Origin: Nanobdellati archaeon
GTDB lineage: Archaea > Nanobdellota > Nanobdellia > Woesearchaeales > JAADFO01
Length of the DNA stretch: 46,757 nucleotides
Reading direction: 5' to 3'
NCBI GenBank assembly: GCA_013152815.1
Contig: JAADFO010000063.1
Location: 1 to 46,757, forward strand
Shown: piece by piece, positions 3,866 to 46,757 of the stretch
Position numbering within the stretch: position 1 is the first letter of the stretch
Layout: each line of letters opens with the position of its first letter
Program-made: the position numbers and the translations under genes
Notes under the pieces: model-generated
What the model was told of the DNA's origin: nothing
What the model saw: the letters and a program-made list of their open reading frames with translations, nothing else
Databases searched by the model: none

Positions 3866-5605
3866 CTATTTAGGGGCAAGGCAGGCCCTGACAAAGCCGA
3901 GATAGAGCGGGTTCGGAGAGAGCGGCCTGGACGTGAATTCCGGATGGAACTGGGTGCCGACGAAGAACCTGTGGCTTGGCAGCTCGAGTATCTGCATGAT
4001 GGGATGGTCCGGGGCCTTTCCTGAGAAGACCAGACCAGCCTTCTCGAACCGCCCGATGTATTCGGGATTGCATTCATAGCGATGCCTGAACCGTTCCCGT
4101 ATCCTGGTCTTTTTGCCGTAGAGCTCCCATGCCCTTGTCCCTTCCCTGACCTCGATGTCCCTTCCGCCGAGGCGCATGTTGGCTCCCAGACCTTCGATCT
4201 TCTTCTGTTCAGGAAGGATGTCGATGACCGGGTGCGTTGTGTCGTTGGAGATCTCGGTGGAGTTGGCGTCCTTGAGCCTGAGCACGTTTCTGGCAAACTC
4301 CACCAGTGCCATCTGGAAACCATAGCATAGTCCGAGATAAGGGATGTTGTTCTCCCTTGCATACCGGATGCACTGTACTTTCCCTTCTGCGCCGCGTTTG
4401 CCGAAACCGCCCGGGACGATGATGCCTGCGATGCCGTCGAAGGCCTGCTTGAGGGTCAGTTTGCCTTCCTCGATGTCCGTCGTCTCGATCCACTTGATGC
4501 TGATCCTGGCCTGGTTGTGGGTTGCCGAATGTTCCAACGCCTTGATGACTGATGCGTAGGAGTCGCGAAGTCCAGTGTATTTTCCGATGATGCCGACCGT
4601 GATCGTCTTCTTGGGGTTCTTTATCCGTCGTATATATCCTTTCCATTCCTTGGAACTTTGGACTTCCCTGTGTTTGAGCCTGAGCTTCTCGAGGATGTTG
4701 CGGTCCAGGCCCGTCCCCTTTATCTCTTCGGGGATGAGGTAGATGGAGTCCACATCATGCACGGAGATGACGTTCTTCAGCGGCACGTTGGAATAGATGC
4801 TGATCTTTGATTTGACCTTTTCGGTGGCCTCGTTATGGCATCGGCAGGCGATGGCGTCGGGCTGGATCCCCAGCTCCATGAGACGCCTGATGCCCAGCTG
4901 GGCTGCCTTTGACTTCTGCTCGCCCAGGAAACCTGGCTCGAGGATATAGGTGACATTGATGAAACAGCAGTTCTCTTTTCCTTCCTCATACATCATCTCC
5001 CGCAGCGCCTCGAGGAAATACTGGTTCTCGATATCTCCCACAGTCCCCCCAACTTCCACGATGACGATGTTGGCCTTGCTCTTCATGGCCAGTTCCCTGA
5101 GAAAATGCTTGATCTCTCCGGTCACATGGGGGATGAACTGCACATCCCTCCCGAGGTAGGAGCCCTTCCGCTCTGCCGTGAGGATGCGGCTGAAGATCCT
5201 GCCCCCTGTCAGGTAATTGGCCTCGCTGAGATCGAGATCGAGCATACGCTCATAGGTGCCCAGGTCCATGTCGCATTCAAGGCCGTCATCGAGGACAAAG
5301 ACCTCGCCATGGCGGAAGGGGTTCAATGTCCCTGCATCCACGTTGAGGTATCCGTCGAACTTGATGGGGCTGATGCGATAACCCTGTTCCTGCATGAGCT
5401 TTCCGAGGGATGCGGCGAAGATACCCTTTCCCAGGCCAGACATGACCGAACCGGTAACAAAGATGTATTTCTGCTTGCCCCGTTCATAGCCCTTCGGGAC
5501 TGGGGTGAAGAACTCTTCTTCTCCAGACCTGCGGGCGAGCTTCTTGAGCATGTCCTTGCCGTTCTCAGCAGCCAAGAAGAATCGCCTCGTGCGTCGTTGA
5601 GCCAT
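3866..5605 (-). CDS. pyrG: CTP synthase
   Basis: KYIFVTGSVMSGLGKG, GTLNPFRHGEVFV, GLCYG glutaminase Cys, RHRYE, QFHPEF; true start may be ATG 5551. Confidence 0.98.
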   Translation of the reverse strand: MAQRRTRRFFLAAENGKDMLKKLARRSGEEEFFTPVPKGYERGKQKYIFVTGSVMSGLGKGIFAASLGKLMQEQGYRISPIKFDGYLNVDAGTLNPFRHGEVFVLDDGLECDMDLGTYERMLDLDLSEANYLTGGRIFSRILTAERKGSYLGRDVQFIPHVTGEIKHFLRELAMKSKANIVIVEVGGTVGDIENQYFLEALREMMYEEGKENCCFINVTYILEPGFLGEQKSKAAQLGIRRLMELGIQPDAIACRCHNEATEKVKSKISIYSNVPLKNVISVHDVDSIYLIPEEIKGTGLDRNILEKLRLKHREVQSSKEWKGYIRRIKNPKKTITVGIIGKYTGLRDSYASVIKALEHSATHNQARISIKWIETTDIEEGKLTLKQAFDGIAGIIVPGGFGKRGAEGKVQCIRYARENNIPYLGLCYGFQMALVEFARNVLRLKDANSTEISNDTTHPVIDILPEQKKIEGLGANMRLGGRDIEVREGTRAWELYGKKTRIRERFRHRYECNPEYIGRFEKAGLVFSGKAPDHPIMQILELPSHRFFVGTQFHPEFTSRPLSPNPLYLGFVRACLAPK

Positions 5606-5810
5606 GCATCAGAAAGAGGGAATGATCGAAAAAACGGCCTTTTCGCATTGTCCATCAGATTTCCAGATAGTATATATATTTTTCTTATATTTTTCTGAAC
5701 ACCTTTTCTCGCTCGTTTTCCTGAAATATCCTTCGCTTCACTTCTCTCACTCCTCTTTAAGCTAAATTTTATGGCCAAATTTTATATAAGGCAAGGCTTT
5801 CAGGCCGGTC

Positions 5811-6473
5811 ATGCGACCGATAAGCAGCCGACAGCAGTGGTTTCCGGGATTCCGTATGAGAAGTGCCGTGATCCCCATCATCGGGGTGAACATCCTCTTC
5901 TTCATACTCCAGCAGACGATTCCCGGCTTCACCGATGCTTTCATCCTGGTGGGCAGCGACATCTTCACCCGGCCCTGGATACTCCTCACGCACATGTTCC
6001 TCCATGCCAACCTCAACCACATCTTCTTCAACATGTACGGCATCCTGCTCTTCGGGCCTCTTCTCGAATCAAGGATCGGCCCCAAACGCCTGCTCGAGGT
6101 GTACCTGGTGTCAGGTCTGGTGGCAGGGTTCTTCGCAAGCTTTGCCTATGCCCGGGCATTGGGTGCGAGCGCCGCCCTGATGGGACTCATCGGTGCGCTG
6201 ATCATCATCATGCCCCAGCTTCGGCTGCTCTTCTTTTTCATCATCCCCATGCCTCTCTGGCTGGCAGGGCTTGTCTGGGTGTCCATCGATGTCTTCGGCG
6301 TCTTTTTCCCTTCGGGAGTCGGCAATATAGCCCATCTTTTCGGCATGGGGACCGGCATCCTGTTCGGTCTTTACTTTCTACGGCAGCGGAAAGGGCAGCA
6401 GGAGACCTTTGCCCAGACCACCCATCTGGATGATGCTGCGGTGGATGACTACCTGCGTTCAGGGAGGTTCTGA
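5811..6473 (+). CDS. Rhomboid-family intramembrane serine protease
   Basis: HMFLHANLNHIFFNM, GASA catalytic Ser, AHLFG catalytic His, multiple TM segments. Confidence 0.93.
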   Translation: MRPISSRQQWFPGFRMRSAVIPIIGVNILFFILQQTIPGFTDAFILVGSDIFTRPWILLTHMFLHANLNHIFFNMYGILLFGPLLESRIGPKRLLEVYLVSGLVAGFFASFAYARALGASAALMGLIGALIIIMPQLRLLFFFIIPMPLWLAGLVWVSIDVFGVFFPSGVGNIAHLFGMGTGILFGLYFLRQRKGQQETFAQTTHLDDAAVDDYLRSGRF

Positions 6474-6514
6474 CTGAGAGGCTGTTTGACAGATTGATTA
6501 TCGAGGTGAAACGC

Positions 6515-6958
6515 ATGGCTGACATCAAGAGGATCATACGGAAAGGGGACAAGGTGGCTGTTACCTACACCGGAACCCTTGACACTGGCGAGATATTCGA
6601 CAGCAATGTGGGAAAGACACCCTTTGTCCATGTGGTGGGAGACGGCCAGACCATCTCCGGCTTCGACGAGAACATCATCGGCATGGCAGAGGATGAGGAG
6701 AAACGTTTCACGGTCCTTCCGGAGAAGGGCTACGGCCAGTACCATGAGAAACTTGCCTATCAGATCCCCCGAAAACAGCTCGGTGACATCACTCCCCAGG
6801 TGGGGACCGAACTGCTGCTGAAATCAAATGCAGGGAACAAGACCACGGCAAAGGCAAGGATAACCAAGGTCGAGCAGGATAAGGTGACCCTCGATATGAA
6901 CCATCCGCTCGCAGGAAAGAACCTCACGTTCCTGGTCAGGATAGATCAGATCTTCTGA
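6515..6958 (+). CDS. slyD: FKBP-type peptidyl-prolyl isomerase (SlyD-like, no His-rich tail)
   Basis: YTGTLDTGEIFDS, GFDENIIGM, PEKGYG, LDMNHPLAGKNLTF; GAGGTGA RBS before ATG 6515. Confidence 0.92.
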   Translation: MADIKRIIRKGDKVAVTYTGTLDTGEIFDSNVGKTPFVHVVGDGQTISGFDENIIGMAEDEEKRFTVLPEKGYGQYHEKLAYQIPRKQLGDITPQVGTELLLKSNAGNKTTAKARITKVEQDKVTLDMNHPLAGKNLTFLVRIDQIF

Positions 6959-13081: not shown

Positions 13082-14305
13082 ATGATAAAGGACTACTTCC
13101 GGTTGGCGGTGAACGCTCTTCTCCAGCGCAAGCTCCGGTCCTATCTCACCATGATCGGCGTCTTCATCGGGATCGCAGCCGTCGTCTCCCTCATAGGTCT
13201 CGGTGCAGGTCTGCAGAACGCCATCATGGGCCAGTTCGGCAGCTTCTCTCCCGATGTGTTGAGCATACAGGCCGGAGGGGTCCAGGTGGGTCCTCCCGGA
13301 AGCGGCGCTGTCACGCCTCTGACCAGGGATGATGCCGATGCCTTGCAGTCGGTGAAGGGAGTGAAGCTCATCATCCCACGGATGATCCGGACAGCAGAGA
13401 TGACCTTCAACGGCAGGTCACAGTACAATCTTGTCGCTTCCATGGTCAGCGGAGATGCCCGGAAGGAGATAGAACGGGTCCTCCAGCTGGAGATCGCCGA
13501 GGGACGGGCCCTCAAGGACAGCGACCGGAACAAGGTCGTCCTGGGCGCTAATTTCGCCGAGTCCGGCAACGGCTTCGGGAAGACCATCAGTCCCGGACAA
13601 CGGGTGTCGATCAAAGGAAAACTCTTCGAGGTGGTCGGCATCAGCAAGAAGCGGGGCAGTTTCATCTTCGACAACATCGTGCTGATGAACGAAGGGCCCA
13701 TGATGTCGCTTTTCGACGACCACACCAAGGTCGATATCATCGCTGTCGTGGTCAGTGACCAGAATGAGATCGACAGGGTCCAGGCACGCCTCGAGAAGAA
13801 GATGCGGCAGTTGCGCAAGGTCAAGGTCGGTGAAGAAGACTTCGAGGTCACCTCTCCCCAGAACACGCTGCGCACCATCGGGGACACGCTCTTCGCCGTC
13901 CAGCTCTTCGTCTATATCATCGCAGGCATCTCGCTCCTGGTGGGTGGCATCGGCATCATGAATACCATGTACACGGCCGTCCTGGAACGGACCAAGGAGA
14001 TCGGCATCATGAAATCCATCGGTGCCCAGAACTACGTCATCTTCACGCTCTACTTCATCGAGTCCGGTCTCATGGGGATCCTGGGCGGCATCATCGGCAT
14101 CCTTCTCGGCATGGGCCTCGCTTCTGGCCTCGCTTTCGTGGGACGGATGGCCCTGGGTTCAAACCTCATCCAGGCATCATTCTCCCCCTTCATCCTGTTC
14201 GGTGCGCTGCTCTTCTCCTTCCTGCTGGGAAGCGTCGCAGGCCTCACCCCTGCTCTGGGTGCAGCGAAGATGAATCCGGTCAATGCGCTGAGGTATGCGA
14301 AATGA
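13082..14305 (+). CDS. ABC transporter permease (MacB/FtsX type)
   Basis: RKLRSYLTMIGVFIGIAAVV, GIGIMNTMYTAVLERTKEIGIMKSIGA, C-terminal PVNALRY. Confidence 0.95.
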   Translation: MIKDYFRLAVNALLQRKLRSYLTMIGVFIGIAAVVSLIGLGAGLQNAIMGQFGSFSPDVLSIQAGGVQVGPPGSGAVTPLTRDDADALQSVKGVKLIIPRMIRTAEMTFNGRSQYNLVASMVSGDARKEIERVLQLEIAEGRALKDSDRNKVVLGANFAESGNGFGKTISPGQRVSIKGKLFEVVGISKKRGSFIFDNIVLMNEGPMMSLFDDHTKVDIIAVVVSDQNEIDRVQARLEKKMRQLRKVKVGEEDFEVTSPQNTLRTIGDTLFAVQLFVYIIAGISLLVGGIGIMNTMYTAVLERTKEIGIMKSIGAQNYVIFTLYFIESGLMGILGGIIGILLGMGLASGLAFVGRMALGSNLIQASFSPFILFGALLFSFLLGSVAGLTPALGAAKMNPVNALRYAK

Positions 14306-15516
14306 TACGGGACATCATCACCTATGCGGTGAACAACCTCAGGAACAGGAAGATGCGGAGCTGGCTCACGGTGCTCTCCATCCTCATCGGCATCGCGGCG
14401 ATCTTCACCCTGGTCAGTTTCGGTCAGGGCCTCTCGAGCTATGTGAACGGCCTGGCATCCAAGATGGGCACAGACAAGATCATCGCCCTCTCCAGCAAAT
14501 CCCTGACCAGCGGCATCAACGAGGAGCTCTTCTTCACCCAGGACGAGGTCAATCTCCTGGGCAAGGTCAAGGGGGTCGCCGAGCTCAGCCCGAACTATCT
14601 CAAAGGGGTCCAGGTCACCAAGGACAAGAAGGTGGTCTATTCCTTCGGCATCGGCATGAGCACGGGAAAGGACCGTCGGCTTGTGGAAGAGGTCTTCACC
14701 GTCGATATCATCCGGGGGAGGGCCCTCAAGACAGGGGACCGGAACAAGGTCGTCCTGGGATACAACTATCTGGTCCCCGACAAGATATTCAAGAAGCCGG
14801 TCAAGGTCGGAGACAAGCTGGACATCAACGGCAGGCTGTTCGAGGTGGTGGGCTTCTTCGACGAGCTGGGCAATCCCTCCGATGACCGGAACGTCTATTT
14901 CACCTATGCAGGTTTCGAGTCGCTCTTCCCTGACCTCAAGGACCGCTACTACCAGATCATCATGCGTTCCTCCGCCGACACGGTCCCTGCGACGGTGGCT
15001 GCGCGGGCCAAGGAGAAACTGAGAAAATACCGTGGCCTCAAGGAAGGCGAGGAGAATTTCGACATCCAGACCTTTGAGCAGGCGCTCCAGACCTTCACCA
15101 GCATCATCACGGTCATCAACAGCATCCTCCTCCTCATCGCGCTGGTCTCGCTCATCATCGCCGGCGTCAACATCATGAACACCATGTACACGGCCGTCCT
15201 GGAACGGACCAAAGAGATAGGCATCATGAAAGCGGTCGGTGCGCAGAACAAGGACATCCTGGTCATCGTCGTCGTCGAGTCCAGCCTTCTCGGTGTCATC
15301 GGAGGCATCATCGGGGTGATGCTCGGCTGGGGAATCTCTTCCCTCGGCGGGAAGATCGCCGCCGGCGCCGGCTATGCTCTCCTCAGTCCTGTCTTTCCCC
15401 TCTGGCTCATCCTCGGCTGCATCTTCTTCGGAGGAGGCATCGGCGCCCTGGCAGGCTATTTCCCTGCGCGGTCCGCTTCCCGGCTCAGGCCGGTGGACAG
15501 CCTACGCTATGAGTGA
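14302..15516 (+). CDS. ABC transporter permease (MacB/FtsX type), second paralog
   Basis: RKMRSWLTVLSILIGIAA, IMNTMYTAVLERTKEIGIMKAVGA, PVDSLRYE; ATGA overlap with previous gene. Confidence 0.95.
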   Translation: MIRDIITYAVNNLRNRKMRSWLTVLSILIGIAAIFTLVSFGQGLSSYVNGLASKMGTDKIIALSSKSLTSGINEELFFTQDEVNLLGKVKGVAELSPNYLKGVQVTKDKKVVYSFGIGMSTGKDRRLVEEVFTVDIIRGRALKTGDRNKVVLGYNYLVPDKIFKKPVKVGDKLDINGRLFEVVGFFDELGNPSDDRNVYFTYAGFESLFPDLKDRYYQIIMRSSADTVPATVAARAKEKLRKYRGLKEGEENFDIQTFEQALQTFTSIITVINSILLLIALVSLIIAGVNIMNTMYTAVLERTKEIGIMKAVGAQNKDILVIVVVESSLLGVIGGIIGVMLGWGISSLGGKIAAGAGYALLSPVFPLWLILGCIFFGGGIGALAGYFPARSASRLRPVDSLRYE

Positions 15517-27998: not shown

Positions 27999-28721
27999 AT
28001 GCCTGATTCCATGTCCGACCGCTACGCACGTCAGGAGGCGCTCCCTGCCATCGGGAAAGCAGGCCAGAAAAAACTTGGGGAAGCAACCGTCACGATCGTC
28101 GGTCTTGGCGCCATCGGAAGCCATGCTGCAGAGCTTCTCCTTCGTGCAGGTGTGCATAACCTCATCCTCATCGATGATGATATGGTCGAGCTCTCCAATC
28201 TCCAGCGGCAGGCGCTCTATACCGAGAAGGACATCGGCCTCATGAAGGCTGATGCGATTGCCCGTCATCTGCAGGCGATCGACGGCAAGGCCAGGCTCGG
28301 CATCCATACAAAAAGGATGGACGAAGGGAACATGGATTCATTGCTGCCGTCAATGGGCAGGGACGCAGGCAGGGTCGTCCTCGACTGCACCGACAACCTC
28401 GAGACAAGATACCTCATCGACGCCCGCTGCAAGAGCAAGAACATCCCCTGGGTGCATGCCGCCTGCGTCGGCTGGTGGGGCGAGGTGAAAGTCTTCCCTT
28501 CCTTCTCATCTTCTGTCCGGCAGAAGACCTATCAGGACATCTTCCCGGACAAGAAGACGCCTCTGGGCTGTGTCGATGCCGGTGTCCTCAACCATGCTGT
28601 GGCTATGACCGCGGCCATCCAGGTCGGCGAGACGGTCAAGCTCATCCTCGGAGAGCCACCCACAGAAGAGCTGATGCGCATCAATGCATGGAAGCATACT
28701 ATCGAGAAGATACGGGTCTAG
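27999..28721 (+). CDS. ThiF/MoeB-family E1-like enzyme (UbaA-like), zinc motifs absent
   Basis: RYARQ, GLGAIG, DDDMVELSNLQRQ, DCTDN, LGCVDAGVL catalytic-loop Cys. Confidence 0.92.
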   Translation: MPDSMSDRYARQEALPAIGKAGQKKLGEATVTIVGLGAIGSHAAELLLRAGVHNLILIDDDMVELSNLQRQALYTEKDIGLMKADAIARHLQAIDGKARLGIHTKRMDEGNMDSLLPSMGRDAGRVVLDCTDNLETRYLIDARCKSKNIPWVHAACVGWWGEVKVFPSFSSSVRQKTYQDIFPDKKTPLGCVDAGVLNHAVAMTAAIQVGETVKLILGEPPTEELMRINAWKHTIEKIRV

Positions 28722-42736: not shown

Positions 42737-43233
42737 CGGTGAAATCCCCTCTCTGTGGCTATTTAATTGTTTCGCTCAGAAGGACTATTATGAGATCCTC
42801 TGCTTTTTTGCCGAATGCATGATCGTCTGTGCCATCGATGTCAGCATTTCCGACTGAAAGGAGGACAATGATGGCTGGCCAGACGTAATCGACGGGGTTC
42901 GTATACAACGTATACGGTTCCCTTTGGTGCCAGCAACTTGTTGCTGAGCATCGTCGATGGAGTAGGTCATGCATTGGGCATGCTCTTGCAGGGTCTCATA
43001 GCAGCCGCTCAGAAGGATGTTGTAGACAGTCACGCTGATACGTGGCCAGCATCAAGCCGGTCGCAGATTTCCTAATCTGCGGAATGTTTTCCTGGCGAGG
43101 GGTCTTTTCCGAAAGATATTCCTTCCCTTCCGGAAACCCATCGTCCTCGTCGAGAACCTTCTGTCTTTTCGTCAGAAAACCAGTTCTTCATTCCTTTCTT
43201 TCCTCGTTGCCATAACTCTGCGAGGTGCGGGAC

Positions 43234-43839
43234 ATGGAAAAGAGTAAACAGAGTAAACAGGCGATATATCTGATCATGACGACAGAACTGGTCAAGGAGA
43301 AGCAAGAGCAGCCATCGGACCGGCGTGACGACAGCGCCTCTGCATCGACCTCTGCCGGCGAATCAGGCCAGTCCAACGAATCCATCGTCCTCTATGAACC
43401 GATGATCAAGGCGGCGAATCTCAATGATGTGCTGAAGTGGAACATGATCGAGCTGAAGGACTACATGCTCAACAACGAACCAGACCTTGTGGGAGACATG
43501 TATCAGAAGGGACCTCAGGAGACTGCAACTGTTGTCAGGGACTTCTATCAAAAGGTCACTGAGAATCCCGGGCGTTTCCGGGCAGACCTCTATCTCTTCC
43601 CCAAGGATACAGGAGAAACAGTAAAGATCATGGTTCGGCCGTTCGATACGGTGGCTGATTTCGCAGACCGTGTCATCGGTGAACAGACGCCCGACATCGA
43701 TGGAATGGAACTCACCGACAAGGTCCTTGCAGGCATGTTCCTTCTGGTCGACGGTCTTGGCAGTCTTGGCAGTCTTAGCAATGCGCCACGAATGGATGCA
43801 CCCAACCTGTATCGGTTGCTTGCAGCCTACGGGCAGTGA
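43234..43839 (+). CDS. Putative ubiquitin-like (beta-grasp) modifier precursor
   Basis: LYLFPKDTGETVKIMVRPFDTVADFADRV resembles the ubiquitin N-terminus; Gly-rich DGLGSLG and terminal YGQ; first gene of an operon with E2-like and E1 genes. Start uncertain (43225/43234/43276). Confidence 0.5.
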   Translation: MEKSKQSKQAIYLIMTTELVKEKQEQPSDRRDDSASASTSAGESGQSNESIVLYEPMIKAANLNDVLKWNMIELKDYMLNNEPDLVGDMYQKGPQETATVVRDFYQKVTENPGRFRADLYLFPKDTGETVKIMVRPFDTVADFADRVIGEQTPDIDGMELTDKVLAGMFLLVDGLGSLGSLSNAPRMDAPNLYRLLAAYGQ

Positions 43840-43854: not shown

Positions 43855-45210
43855 ATGCTCACCCTCACCAGCCAGACACCGTTCAGCAGCACGCTAGGTC
43901 AGGGGTATGGCTATGTTCTCATGGGATCCCAGCTGTTCACGCTTGATGATAGGCGGAACGGTCTTGCACGCCATGTCTTCACCGATGGTCAGGTCTACTG
44001 GTTTCAGGGCGGTCTCAATTATGATACCCTGGAAAAACGGATCATCACCAACAATCTTCCCTCCATCCTTGCTGAAGTGAACGATCAGCTGGCCGAGGAA
44101 GCAGCCAGCGGAACCAAGGATCGGCTCAGAGCAGACACCATCCGTGCCTCTTTCAAGCATCTCACTCCGCAAACCTATGAGCAGTATATCCTCCAGCACA
44201 TTCTCGGGAGCTATGATGTTCCTCTCAGGGCATCTCCCGGCAGGTGCACATCATCTGCTGCAAATGAGTGGAGGATCACCGGTCGGGATCTGCTCAGTCG
44301 TCTTCCCATCCTCACTCCACCATACCAGGATACTGCTCTCTATTTTCATCAGGACCTCGTGGATCTGTTCTCTCTTCGGAAAACAAACGACACTTCTGTT
44401 GTTTCTTGGCAGACTGCTCGGCAGCAGGTGATGCAGGCGGTGGCTAATCTCATCAGTTCGAAACAGCGGCTTCAGCCTCAATACATCGCTCTTGGTTCTA
44501 CAAAGCTCTTCAGGAAGTCGACCCTGAGCATCGACATGTTCCTGCAGGAATATGAGCAGCGCTATCAGGGGATCCTTGATGATCTCATCCGGACAAGCAC
44601 CGCAAAGGTGGATAAGTTGAAGATGGTCGCTGCTCAGGACTATCAGCAGAGCAGTGACCAGTTGCGTGCGCTCAGTCGGGGACGTGCCCATCAGCAGGAT
44701 AAGGATCCTATCTGGTACGAACGGCTGACTGACAAGACCTTTCATCTTTTCCTGCGCATACCTCCCTTTGTGATGGTCTCAAGCGAGACCTACTATTATT
44801 TCAAAAGACCTGTCACCGTCAGGATGAAGATATCTTTCGCTGATAGCCACGGAAGTGTGGAACTTCCTCGGATCATCCATCCTCTGAAGTATGTTCATCC
44901 GTTCGTTTATTCCCCTTCAGCCGATGTCAAGGGACAAAGCATCTGCTTCAATAGTGGTTCTTCCTTGACTTCCTTGGGGGTCCGGTTGCACGATACCCCT
45001 GTCCACGGCATGGATGACCCTTCTTTTGCAAGGAATGTCCTCCTGCTTCTCAAGAAGACCGTCAACGGCCTGACGTCGGGCTATGTTGAGGGAGTGAAAC
45101 CTGTCCATAACTTGAGCGCTTTCTCTGACTTGGCTGTTCCTCCCTCTGAGATACCTTCCCACGTGCCTGTCTACTATCAGGACACCATGGACTGGGGCGG
45201 TCAGCGATGA
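43855..45210 (+). CDS. Protein with C-terminal E2/UBC-like domain and long N-terminal extension
   Basis: LFLRIPPF...LPRII...VHPFVY...GQSICF (His348-Pro, Cys364) resembles the E2 HPN..G.ICL core; GAGGTG RBS; ATGA overlap with E1. Confidence 0.6.
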   Translation: MLTLTSQTPFSSTLGQGYGYVLMGSQLFTLDDRRNGLARHVFTDGQVYWFQGGLNYDTLEKRIITNNLPSILAEVNDQLAEEAASGTKDRLRADTIRASFKHLTPQTYEQYILQHILGSYDVPLRASPGRCTSSAANEWRITGRDLLSRLPILTPPYQDTALYFHQDLVDLFSLRKTNDTSVVSWQTARQQVMQAVANLISSKQRLQPQYIALGSTKLFRKSTLSIDMFLQEYEQRYQGILDDLIRTSTAKVDKLKMVAAQDYQQSSDQLRALSRGRAHQQDKDPIWYERLTDKTFHLFLRIPPFVMVSSETYYYFKRPVTVRMKISFADSHGSVELPRIIHPLKYVHPFVYSPSADVKGQSICFNSGSSLTSLGVRLHDTPVHGMDDPSFARNVLLLLKKTVNGLTSGYVEGVKPVHNLSAFSDLAVPPSEIPSHVPVYYQDTMDWGGQR

Positions 45211-46691
45211 ATGCGGCAAGCACCCAACTCCGTTTCGACCGCAATATCCTTCTTTTTGGTGAAGAGGGACAACGACGTCTCATGGATACTCACGTCCTCC
45301 TTCACGGGACCAACACCCTCTCCCAGAAGATCGCCCTGTCCCTGATCAGCCTTGGCATCGGCAGGCTCTCGCTCATCGGACCAGAACATCTGCAGGGATA
45401 TGATCCTTCTGATTTCCTGCTGTATCTGAATCCTTCCCGCCCGGCCGAGGGAATGAAGGCAGATGGTCTGCGTTCGACCCTGGAGCAGATCGCTCTCCGC
45501 GGAAAACAGCAGGTCGATTCCTATGGCATCCCCCCTGATCCTGGTTTCCTCTCTTTTCTCTCACCAGACATCATCATCGACGCGACCAATGCTCTGGAGA
45601 GCAAGGATGCCTTGTCTGCCTATGCGATGTCCCATGGGACACATCTCATCTCTGCCAGCGCGACGTCTACCGACGGACTGGCCCAGTTATGCTCCTCAGG
45701 ACAGTCCCCTGTCGACAGAGCATCGCTTGAACGCCTGATAGGCAAGGACTACGGCATCTTCACCGGTTCCATCACCGCGGGACTCGTGAGCAATCTGGTG
45801 CGTCGGATCGCCATTCCCTTCGCAAACGAACAGAAGACCCTGCCTCCTGTCCTGACCCAGTCCTACGCGCTCTCAAGGATTGCCGGCATCACCACACCCA
45901 TCGATGCTCCTGATGCTTTACCCTGGCCCTCTTCAAGGCCCTATGCTGGTGTCAAAGCGCTCGTGATCGGCACAGGAGGCATCGGCAACTTCCTCGCGCT
46001 TGACCTTGCGCTGCTGGGAATCACTCATGTTACCTTGGTGGACCCCGATGTGATCGAGGAATCCAACCTCAACCGGCAGCCGCTGCTCTATGGCCGGGTC
46101 GGAAAGCCAAAGGCAACTGTCATCGGTGAACGCATGGGCCTGATCTATCCCGGAGTATCTGCAAGACCGTTGGTCGACTTTTTCAGCTATAAGCATGATG
46201 ATCGAGGACGGTTTCAGGTCTTGCCTGAACCGCTGGCTTCAGAACACTATGACCTCATCTTCTCCTGCGTGGACAATGAGACCAGCAGGCTTGCCATCAA
46301 CGACTACGCGGTCCAGACGAGGACTGTCCTGGTCCAGGGAAGATTGGGGACAGGCAGCGGACTGCATACCTATGTTCCCGGAAGGAACCGGTGCATCGAC
46401 TGCCAGGAGAACCTGCGCGCATCCCTGGAGAACCAGAAGGCCACGGGCCTTGATGTCGACAAGGTATTGGGCCCCGGCTGCCAGCTCGAGTCCAACCCGA
46501 ACATCGTGGTCCCGAACATCATCGTCGCAGGTCTGATGACAGAGGAAGGTCTGCGTGCGCTCTACAGACCAGCGAGTTTTGCCCGACAGAAGGATGCATT
46601 GTTCTATGAAGGGGTCGGATCGTTCCCTTTCTCCTTCCGGGGAGGCGTCGATCCCTACTATCAAGCCCATCCTTGCATCGATGTTTCCTGA
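45207..46691 (+). CDS. Tandem-domain E1 enzyme (inactive plus active ThiF adenylation domains)
   Basis: Domain 1: RFDRNILLFGEEGQRRL, degenerate loop HGTNTLS, DATN. Domain 2: GTGGIG, DPDVIEESNLNRQ, GKPKA, SCVDN, CIDC, PGCQ. Confidence 0.88.
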   Translation: MNAASTQLRFDRNILLFGEEGQRRLMDTHVLLHGTNTLSQKIALSLISLGIGRLSLIGPEHLQGYDPSDFLLYLNPSRPAEGMKADGLRSTLEQIALRGKQQVDSYGIPPDPGFLSFLSPDIIIDATNALESKDALSAYAMSHGTHLISASATSTDGLAQLCSSGQSPVDRASLERLIGKDYGIFTGSITAGLVSNLVRRIAIPFANEQKTLPPVLTQSYALSRIAGITTPIDAPDALPWPSSRPYAGVKALVIGTGGIGNFLALDLALLGITHVTLVDPDVIEESNLNRQPLLYGRVGKPKATVIGERMGLIYPGVSARPLVDFFSYKHDDRGRFQVLPEPLASEHYDLIFSCVDNETSRLAINDYAVQTRTVLVQGRLGTGSGLHTYVPGRNRCIDCQENLRASLENQKATGLDVDKVLGPGCQLESNPNIVVPNIIVAGLMTEEGLRALYRPASFARQKDALFYEGVGSFPFSFRGGVDPYYQAHPCIDVS

Positions 46692-46757
46692 CCATCAGGA
46701 ACTGCTTGTCCTGAAGCGATCATCATCGTGAAAAGCACATCCCGAAAAGAAGCAACA

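Follow-up and report, generated by a model that had tools for sequence, protein, structure and literature searches.

A minimal single-chain E1, predicted to be pseudo-dimeric, with a probable role in ubiquitin-like protein conjugation in a Woesearchaeota-like archaeon of the DPANN group

Exploring a stretch of 46,757 nucleotides (the window) from a Nanobdellati archaeon (assembly GCA_013152815.1, contig JAADFO010000063.1 in its entirety, here C63; host genome 1.49 Mb, 90.8% complete), we found a gene for a two-domain ubiquitin-activating-type enzyme (E1) carrying two copies of the ThiF adenylation fold. The gene follows, on the same strand, genes encoding a candidate ubiquitin-like protein (Ubl) and a protein resembling ubiquitin-conjugating enzymes (E2), and the stop codon of the E2-like gene overlaps the start codon of the E1 gene by 4 nt (ATGA). 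A peptidase of the JAMM type is probably encoded just beyond the end of the contig. The open reading frames (ORFs) and features of this locus are as follows.

43225..43839, plus strand: candidate Ubl precursor, 204 aa, GTG start, first gene of the operon
43768-43770, plus strand: G182, conserved Gly of the candidate Ubl
43771-43836, plus strand: 22-residue tail after G182 of the candidate Ubl
43855..45210, plus strand: E2-like protein, 451 aa
44707-45174, plus strand: UBC-like domain of the E2-like protein, residues ~285-440
44944-44946, plus strand: C364 of the E2-like protein, preceded by His-Pro-Phe
45207..46691, plus strand: E1 ORF, 494 aa
46704..46757, no strand: contig end, 54 bases identical to the end of contig C42 read on its opposite strand
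Contig C42 (locus L003) 14855..13314, minus strand: JAMM peptidase, 513 aa, on the same strand as the operon

Because of this terminal identity, contigs C63 and C42 probably join at 46704..46757, the JAMM ORF then beginning ~20 nt beyond the end of the window and ~85 nt after the stop codon of E1. The join is further supported by the recurrence of the resulting order, Ubl-E2-E1-JAMM, at a second locus (L017). A scan for promoters and terminators gave nothing above the shuffled expectation.

Translation of the E1 gene, by which all motif coordinates were checked, showed a putative inactive adenylation domain (IAD) and an active adenylation domain (AAD) joined by a linker.

45207..45821, plus strand: IAD, residues 1-205
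45231-45281, plus strand: N-terminal helix, residues 9-25
45240-45242, plus strand: R12 on the N-terminal helix
45306-45323, plus strand: degenerate glycine loop G34-T-N-T-L-S39
Residue 127: Thr occupying the place of the Mg-binding Asp in the inactive domain
45822..45941, plus strand: inter-domain linker, residues 206-245, of low model confidence
45864-45887, plus strand: linker motif, residues 220-227, with a conserved Tyr (Y220)
45942..46691, plus strand: AAD, residues 246-494 and stop codon
45969-45986, plus strand: GTGGIG, residues 255-260
46062-46079, plus strand: SNLNRQ, residues 286-291
46110-46112, plus strand: K302
46266-46277, plus strand: CVDN, residues 354-357, including D356
46392-46403, plus strand: C396-I-D-C399, zinc motif paired with H488 and C490
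46479-46481, plus strand: C425, candidate catalytic Cys
46668-46676, plus strand: H488-P-C490

The initial annotation had described an N-terminal copy that keeps an Arg-bearing helix while losing its GxGxxG and SNLNRQ motifs, followed by an intact second copy with a CxxC pair, a probable catalytic Cys on a short loop and a terminal HPC as second zinc pair. Every one of these elements was found at its place: the glycine loop of the first copy is degenerate with no equivalent of SNLNRQ behind it, and the second copy holds GTGGIG, SNLNRQ and CVDN with all nucleotide-binding residues present. The Pfam family ThiF (PF00899) matched the protein in two stretches (E 8.5e-45; 153.2 bits for the whole protein against a cut-off of 28.1), and in a whole-genome scan each half alone exceeded the cut-off, the N-terminal half (45234-45719) with 43.1 bits (E 1.7e-11) and the C-terminal half (45954-46574) with 112.6 bits. 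Furthermore, a hidden Markov model (HMM) built on the C-terminal halves of the 84 family members matched the N-terminal half of the query at residues 22-166 (E 1.7e-6). When the two halves of the same protein were aligned through this model, D279 stood opposite G58 and D356 opposite T127, and the SNLNRQ stretch stood opposite unrelated residues. Given that the C-terminal-half model matches the N-terminal half and that the active-site residues are not equivalent, we concluded that the E1 gene is an internal duplication in which one copy is without a nucleotide site.

To follow the conservation of these residues we aligned 84 sequences, the query and 83 full-length relatives chosen from the search returns. 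Searching exhaustively through proteins that each represent a cluster formed at 50% identity, we had obtained 9155 matches with E <= 1e-3, of which 48 reached E <= 1e-30; among the best 150 of the 9155 matches listed, more than 100 were full-length (430-580 aa). A word-indexed search returned four full-length relatives only, and public records call the relatives merely 'ThiF family adenylyltransferase'. Residues G255, G257, D281, N287, K302, D356, C425 and N437 were invariant in all 84 sequences, C425 among them being the candidate catalytic Cys; the poor conservation of C425 that would have counted against the initial annotation is thus not seen. R290 was kept in 82/84, Q291 in 83/84, R12 of the N-terminal helix in 79/84 and G34 in 83/84. 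At the zinc site C396 was kept in 75/84 and C399 in 70/84, with His in 4 further sequences. The column of C490 holds Cys in 70/84, usually as C-x-C, and the H-P-C of the query is therefore, judged by the aligned residues, a Cys3His variant of a Cys4 zinc site. On the side of the dead half, the equivalent of the Mg-binding Asp is Thr or Ser in 77/84 relatives, and a conserved SNLNRQ equivalent was present in none of the 84, the columns there being variable; roughly every second relative retains G-S-G-x-x-A/G in the N-terminal copy, 43/84 having G at column 36. In the linker, 80/84 sequences keep Y220, and 70/84 have Arg at the position of residue 227.

Between C399 and N437, the crossover segment bearing C425 comprises 37 residues in the query and 21-39 in all 84 sequences (median 28), and the tail beyond residue 456 measures ~38 residues in the query, with a family median of 36.5. 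Given these lengths, the family is, as far as its sequences tell, without a Cys domain, and nearly all its members are without room for a ubiquitin-fold domain (UFD). A search for longer homologues yielded one 1224-aa UBA1-type E1 and no fused prokaryotic forms, and a Pfam scan of the E1 found neither a JAB nor an E2 domain. No NCBIfam family scored above its cut-off for the E1, and the PADLOC models that matched, of the Cap2 'E1-E2' type, covered the active half only.

The AlphaFold2 model of the E1 reached a mean predicted local distance difference test score (pLDDT) of 87.5 and a predicted template modelling score (pTM) of 0.91, with low confidence confined to the linker (~211-240, pLDDT 53-57), residues 422-425 in the C425 loop and the extreme C-terminus. 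Foldseek with this model returned UBA1, UBA6 and UBA7 as all of its top matches (E ~1e-20 to 1e-21 over ~600 columns). Structural comparison by VIA aligned ~440 residues, spanning residues 2-494, with UBA1 and UBA6 at Z 32-33, and 389-402 residues with type II BilD (8tyz_A, 8tz0_A) at Z 30.5; identity in the structural alignments was 12% to BilD versus 16-21% to UBA1. The N-terminal half alone (~3-228) matched APPBP1, ThiF and SAE1 at Z ~24, in keeping with a ThiF fold, and the C-terminal half gave a structural match to SAE2 at 28% identity. A sequence-only search of the PDB likewise paired residues 238-400 best with SAE2 (1.7e-11) and residues 8-72 with SAE1 (2e-4). Two short strands and a single helix make up the model beyond residue 456, and the alignment to UBA1 runs out near UBA1 residue 931, short of its UFD. 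Because the model aligns end to end with the single-chain eukaryotic E1s and with BilD, an intramolecular IAD/AAD pseudo-dimer, as proposed in the initial annotation, is supported by the predicted structure. Its term 'eukaryote-like' holds for the two-domain core, and does not extend to the Cys domain and the UFD, both of which are absent.

Examination of the gene neighbourhood covered 29 loci with an E1-family ORF, drawn from public genomes and metagenomes, whose ORFs were searched with iterated HMMs; two of the loci, L085 and L086, are near copies. The JAMM family was present in 26, the E2-like family in 23 and the candidate Ubl in 12, and all three partners stood together in 12/29, the Ubl relatives being upstream of the E2-like gene in these. 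Two of the three loci that are without the JAMM family (L091 and L103) have their E1 near the start of the contig, and the third (L140) encodes only a 268-aa single-domain protein. The usual gene order is Ubl-E2-JAMM-E1. Pfam Prok-JAB matched a gene beside the E1 in 12/13 genome loci, and missed the JAMM gene of the host genome itself, which was identified via its relatives and motif. A metagenome-assembled genome (MAG) titled as Asgard (L073) holds an E2-JAMM-E1 set.

Genes for a Ser/Thr protein kinase and a cytidylyltransferase-like protein were seen downstream of the E1 in 5/13 genome loci (L006, L009, L010, L013, L015). A ClpB/Cdc48-type AAA ATPase gene follows the E1 in one genome locus and TPR protein genes do so in two (jointly L005:8043-9503, L008:7187-8608 and L011:7242-8618). 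The kinase, cytidylyltransferase-like, AAA ATPase and TPR genes may be accessory parts of the system.

The E2-like protein had no match in Pfam, NCBIfam or PADLOC, and none in the PDB with either the single sequence or a 13-sequence profile. Its C364 is the sole invariant residue of the family (24/24 relatives). In the AlphaFold2 model residues 285-440 reached a pLDDT of ~80-90, the N-terminal part being poor and largely helical. A wide VIA search, independent of Foldseek, returned E2s or E2 domains in 20 of the 21 top rows, at Z 6.2-8.1 over 112-138 aligned residues, the matching part being residues 285-440 with one earlier helix. Among these rows were UbcH10 (Z 8.1), UbcH5, Pex4, the E2 domain of Cap2, BubB and UFC1 (Z 6.3), so that the likeness is not specific to UFC1; BilB was absent from the structural matches listed.

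The JAMM peptidase, likewise without a match in Pfam, NCBIfam or PADLOC, carries the motif H240-x-H242-x7-S250-x-x-D253, invariant in 20/20 relatives, and an E177 at least 90% conserved. Its family profile matched a Caldiarchaeum Rpn11-like protein best (1.7e-9), Rpn11 and CSN5 also, and BilC at 0.22. The candidate Ubl, for which these three databases also gave no match, belongs to a family in whose 13-sequence alignment G182 is at least 90% conserved, usually as Gly-Gly, with 2-22 more residues behind it. The ESM Atlas offered no usable feature for it, since the Atlas model had a pLDDT of 0.41 and meaningless structure neighbours. Complex prediction of the E1 with Ubl residues 62-182 scored 0.00 with the partner fold uncertain and is evidence neither way.

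The seryl-tRNA synthetase of the host has its best named matches in Woesearchaeota and Nanoarchaeota MAGs, with 62-65% identity. By title, the loci with full-length E1 relatives comprise nine from Woesearchaeota/Nanoarchaeota MAGs, three from Methanosarcinales and one from Chloroflexota, and a Desulfobacterota clade of proteins of ~414 aa has an active half closely related to that of the family. Within the order of the host, 14/41 genomes (host included) have an E1 match at E <= 1e-10 and three carry 2-4 copies; such patchy occurrence, with several copies in some genomes, would suit an accessory system. Of the 26 loci on viral contigs 25 match part of the active half only, and the remaining one (L170) matches query residues 9-390.

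Elsewhere in the window, a separate single-domain gene of the MoeB/ThiF/UbaA type was found, and two genes upstream of the operon lie on the opposite strand with no operon link seen. The 240-aa MoeB/ThiF-type protein scores under every NCBIfam equivalog cut-off.

27999-28721, plus strand: single-domain MoeB/ThiF/UbaA-type gene, 240 aa, Pfam ThiF 196.6 bits
38609-40492, minus strand: PIN-ATPase-KH protein, 627 aa
40640-42736, minus strand: transglutaminase-core protein, 698 aa

Together, these data lead us to propose that the protein is probably a minimal E1, made as a single chain, that serves an operon for ubiquitin-like conjugation in this Woesearchaeota-like DPANN archaeon. The initial annotation had seen in it an E1 dedicated to protein conjugation, and this view gains from the conserved context, a UBC-like E2 with an invariant Cys, an intact JAMM motif and a small protein whose C-terminal Gly is conserved, as well as from the separate, ordinary MoeB/ThiF gene in the same window. 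In the proposed pathway the JAMM peptidase would cut the 22-residue tail off the Ubl precursor and so expose G182. ATP-Mg would bind to the active domain, where R12 from the dead domain would complete the site as an Arg finger, a role known for MoeB and for the eukaryotic IAD subunits. The active domain would then adenylate the C-terminus of the Ubl. C425 would then receive the Ubl as a thioester, from which it would be handed to C364 of the UBC-like E2 and thence to lysines of the targets, and the JAMM enzyme might also be able to reverse the mark. The system could act in virus defence, as the bacterial Bil systems do, to which the patchy distribution is the one indirect pointer, or in regulation.

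Several observations weigh against this proposal. The best PDB matches of the candidate Ubl are ubiquitin constructs, aligned over the first two strands and the helix, at a non-significant E of 0.74, and its family profile found no ubiquitin-like match in the PDB, the best hit (E 0.95) being an unrelated protein. The overall model of the E2-like protein has a pLDDT of 63 and its assignment as an E2 relies on middling scores (Z 6-8); Foldseek with this model returned mostly E2s, the best at E 0.035 and none at or below 0.001. The JAMM gene is tied to the operon solely via the 54-nt overlap of the contig ends, and the E1 itself has no UFD or other evident element for docking an E2.

We therefore weighed what else the protein might be. 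MoeB and ThiF carry their Cys on a short crossover loop together with a Cys-rich zinc site, as does the E1 described here, and the E1 family profile matched them in the PDB (1.2e-34 and 2.6e-34) just under the eukaryotic E1s (4e-39 to 2e-35), the profile of the inactive half even matching MoeB, ThiF and Uba4 best. An enzyme of the MoeB/ThiF/UbaA type that activates a sulfur carrier for cofactor synthesis or tRNA thiolation, without protein conjugation, would account for these likenesses. The genome, however, has a canonical 240-aa gene of this type elsewhere in the window, and the E2-like protein with its invariant Cys and the JAMM peptidase would be superfluous for sulfur transfer; because of this separate gene and these partners we consider such a role very unlikely. 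Moreover, no rhodanese domain or sulfur-transfer gene was found among the neighbours scanned, and a single-chain pseudo-dimer is unknown for this class in the available text of two accounts of the field (10.1101/2023.09.26.559546; PMC11354881). The family profile also matched the peptide-modifying adenylases MccB (~2e-32) and PaaA (9e-22), and the small neighbour protein has a conserved C-terminal region on which an adenylase of ribosomally synthesized and post-translationally modified peptides (RiPPs) might act without any ligation. Such an activity is scarcely credible here: both proteins rank under the eukaryotic E1s, MoeB and ThiF, the N-terminal half is a ThiF fold with no peptide-clamp domain, and no transporter or immunity gene belongs to the conserved partners, which comprise the E2-like protein and the JAMM peptidase.

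A different question is whether the operon is a divergent archaeal member of the type II Bil antiviral systems, acquired horizontally, instead of a separate lineage. Its gene content is that given for Bil, the E2 and JAB peptidase genes being accompanied by those of a tailed Ubl and a ~500-aa E1 with IAD and AAD, and the type II Bil table, in the part of the source available, already lists one archaeon, Heimdallarchaeota LC_3, with no DPANN entry (10.1101/2023.09.26.559546). The structural match to BilD at Z 30.5 and the patchy occurrence in the order of the host, with several copies in three genomes, would also agree with such an acquisition. Against it, the ~80-residue helical Cys domain of BilD is absent, the corresponding segment having 21-39 residues throughout the family; BilD was not among the best 60 PDB matches of the E1 family profile, whereas BubCD (4e-22) and Cap2 (1e-19) were, as was UBA5 (2e-29); identity to BilD is lower than to UBA1; and the JAMM profile matches the Rpn11-like protein far better than BilC. 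We regard membership in type II Bil as unlikely.

The proposal of a separate minimal conjugation E1 raises the question of where its dead domain came from. In a tree of 75 hand-picked AADs, from which BilD was left out, the E1 family, the Desulfobacterota group and the Asgard-titled sequences fell on one side with a Shimodaira-Hasegawa-like approximate likelihood ratio test (SH-aLRT) support of 91, the backbone being unresolved. The eukaryotic AADs formed a clade (86), nearest to which stood the single-domain E1 of a Heimdallarchaeota-titled MAG (L023) and two planctomycete proteins (89), and the Bub E1s formed a separate clade (99). The Heimdallarchaeota-titled E1 (L023:1840-2847) has 335 aa, with an extra C-terminal domain. 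One protein labelled beforehand as a family member (L105) fell outside the family. In a tree of both halves, with 23 family IADs and one UBA1 IAD and with SAE1 and NAE1 left out, the family IADs formed one clade (SH-aLRT 99) that weakly adjoined the family AADs (68), and the single UBA1 IAD grouped with the eukaryotic AADs (98). The per-domain phylogeny suggested by the initial annotation thus gave the family its own clade in both trees and did not place it beside the eukaryotic E1s, BilD being absent from the trees. The dead-half profile matched MoeB (3e-24), ThiF and Uba4 in the PDB better than SAE1 (1.5e-12) and NAE1 (1.6e-10). The sequence data do not show the family to be an ancestor of the eukaryotic E1s. 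A tree uniting all IADs was not rejected by the approximately unbiased (AU) test (p 0.458), and the asymmetry may therefore have either a shared or a convergent origin.

The family includes both states, most members being tandem and at least one operon of the same type having a single-domain E1. This metagenome operon (L090:4011-6735; E2-like, JAMM, E1) encodes a 254-aa E1 with one ThiF domain, which has an N-terminal Arg helix of its own immediately ahead of the glycine loop, the loop Cys of the family and a C-terminal C-x-C, and which the AAD tree places among the tandem forms. It is conceivable, and we suggest it tentatively while leaning against it, that the dead-plus-live pseudo-dimer arose independently within this lineage by tandem duplication of a homodimeric E1. 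If so, the duplication would parallel those of the eukaryotic stem and of Bil, the family would offer a natural series in which to study why one of the two active sites has been abandoned repeatedly in E1s, and the enzyme would be the smallest pseudo-dimeric E1 known, with neither Cys domain nor UFD.

Other arrangements of ThiF genes were seen in passing. Loci L105, L106 and L107 encode single-domain relatives of 226-227 aa (e.g. L106:285-968), and L106 and L107 have a weakly ThiF-like ORF of 208 aa ~2.6 kb downstream (e.g. L106:3625-4251); the two products may be the subunits of a split enzyme, or they may be unrelated. Four loci (L039, L053, L070, L145) have two adjacent ThiF genes for proteins of ~385-417 aa (e.g. 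L053:4434-5633 and 5503-6750), one scoring ~50 bits and the other 104-112 bits against the active-domain model, and these pairs may be two-gene E1s. They carry the titles Paracoccaceae, Gemmobacter and Sulfitobacter, L145 being an untitled metagenome contig.

Pseudo-dimeric E1s are treated as a hallmark of the activation of ubiquitin, SUMO and NEDD8 in eukaryotes, and BilD is described as the only prokaryotic one, in the available portions of two sources (10.1101/2023.09.26.559546; PMC11354881). Our literature search, which covered open-licence papers and preprints only and is therefore weak evidence, returned no description of a two-domain E1 or of a Ubl-E2-JAMM-E1 operon in DPANN archaea. 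The present family would add a sizeable, mostly archaeal (DPANN) group of pseudo-dimer E1s stripped of Cys domain and UFD. It would offer a minimal enzyme for testing the contribution of the dead domain and a test case for whether E1 asymmetry arose once or several times, and it would be a sign that archaea of very small genome size tag proteins, possibly in virus defence or regulation.

Among known systems, type II Bil of Ensifer aridi (BilD: PDB 8TYZ/8TZ0) shares with the present operon the set of Ubl, E2 and JAB peptidase genes, the IAD-AAD core of the E1 and a candidate Ubl made with a C-terminal tail past a conserved Gly; no UFD was seen in the E1 here. As far as the source is available, BilD consists of an IAD-AAD core with a mobile helical Cys domain of ~80 residues and is encoded in an operon with Ubl, E2 and JAB peptidase (10.1101/2023.09.26.559546). 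The present E1 differs in holding its Cys on the short crossover segment, the E2-like protein in its ~280-residue N-terminal extension and in the His-Pro-Phe before its Cys, and the JAMM enzyme in being nearer Rpn11 and CSN5 than BilC; the hosts are mostly DPANN archaea. Bacterial E1-like proteins other than BilD are described as homodimers, to judge from the accessible text of two sources (10.1101/2023.09.26.559546; PMC11354881).

The Bub operons, and Cap2 of the cyclic-oligonucleotide-based antiphage signalling system (CBASS), are likewise prokaryotic conjugation systems with E1, E2 and JAB. Where the source could be consulted, Bub is without a catalytic Cys and has a DUF6527 protease, and the Bub and Cap2 E1s are homodimeric fusions (BubCD JAB-E1, Cap2 E2-E1). 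Unlike Bub, the present E1 has an invariant Cys, and no DUF6527 was found among the neighbours scanned. Five loci (L040, L044, L072, L031 and L076), one of them in a Methanocella-titled MAG, are Bub-type operons with Multi_ubiq, Prok-E2_E, a JAB-E1 fusion and DUF6527; a Bil identity had been considered for them and was dropped on their gene content. A UFM1-type system (UBA5/UFC1) was also considered for the present operon and rejected, given that neither UBA5 nor UFC1 was a best match and that the E1 is not a single-domain homodimer. The ubiquitin operons of Caldiarchaeum and the Asgard archaea resemble ours as archaeal clusters of Ubl, E1, E2 and JAMM, the JAMM enzyme here matching the Rpn11-like protein of Caldiarchaeum best. 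Their E1s are, in the part of the account available, single adenylation domains with a Cys-bearing insert of ~60 residues (PMC11354881). No RING-type ligase (E3) was seen here, unlike in the E1-E2-RING-Rpn11 operons of these archaea.

With MoeB, ThiF, UbaA and UBA5 the enzyme shares the adenylation fold and the active-site residues. These are single-domain homodimers with two active sites, unlike the fused pair with one dead site described here, and the MoeB/ThiF class differs further in that the present E1 is encoded with E2-like and JAMM genes. Compared with the eukaryotic E1s, it is without the first and second catalytic Cys half-domains (FCCH, SCCH), the four-helix bundle and the UFD of the UBA1 type, and its candidate catalytic Cys is on a loop, unlike in canonical eukaryotic E1s and as in the non-canonical ones. 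With UBA1, UBA6 and UBA7, SAE1-SAE2 and NAE1-UBA3 it has in common the IAD-AAD pseudo-dimer core, as predicted by the model, and the Arg-bearing helix kept in the IAD.

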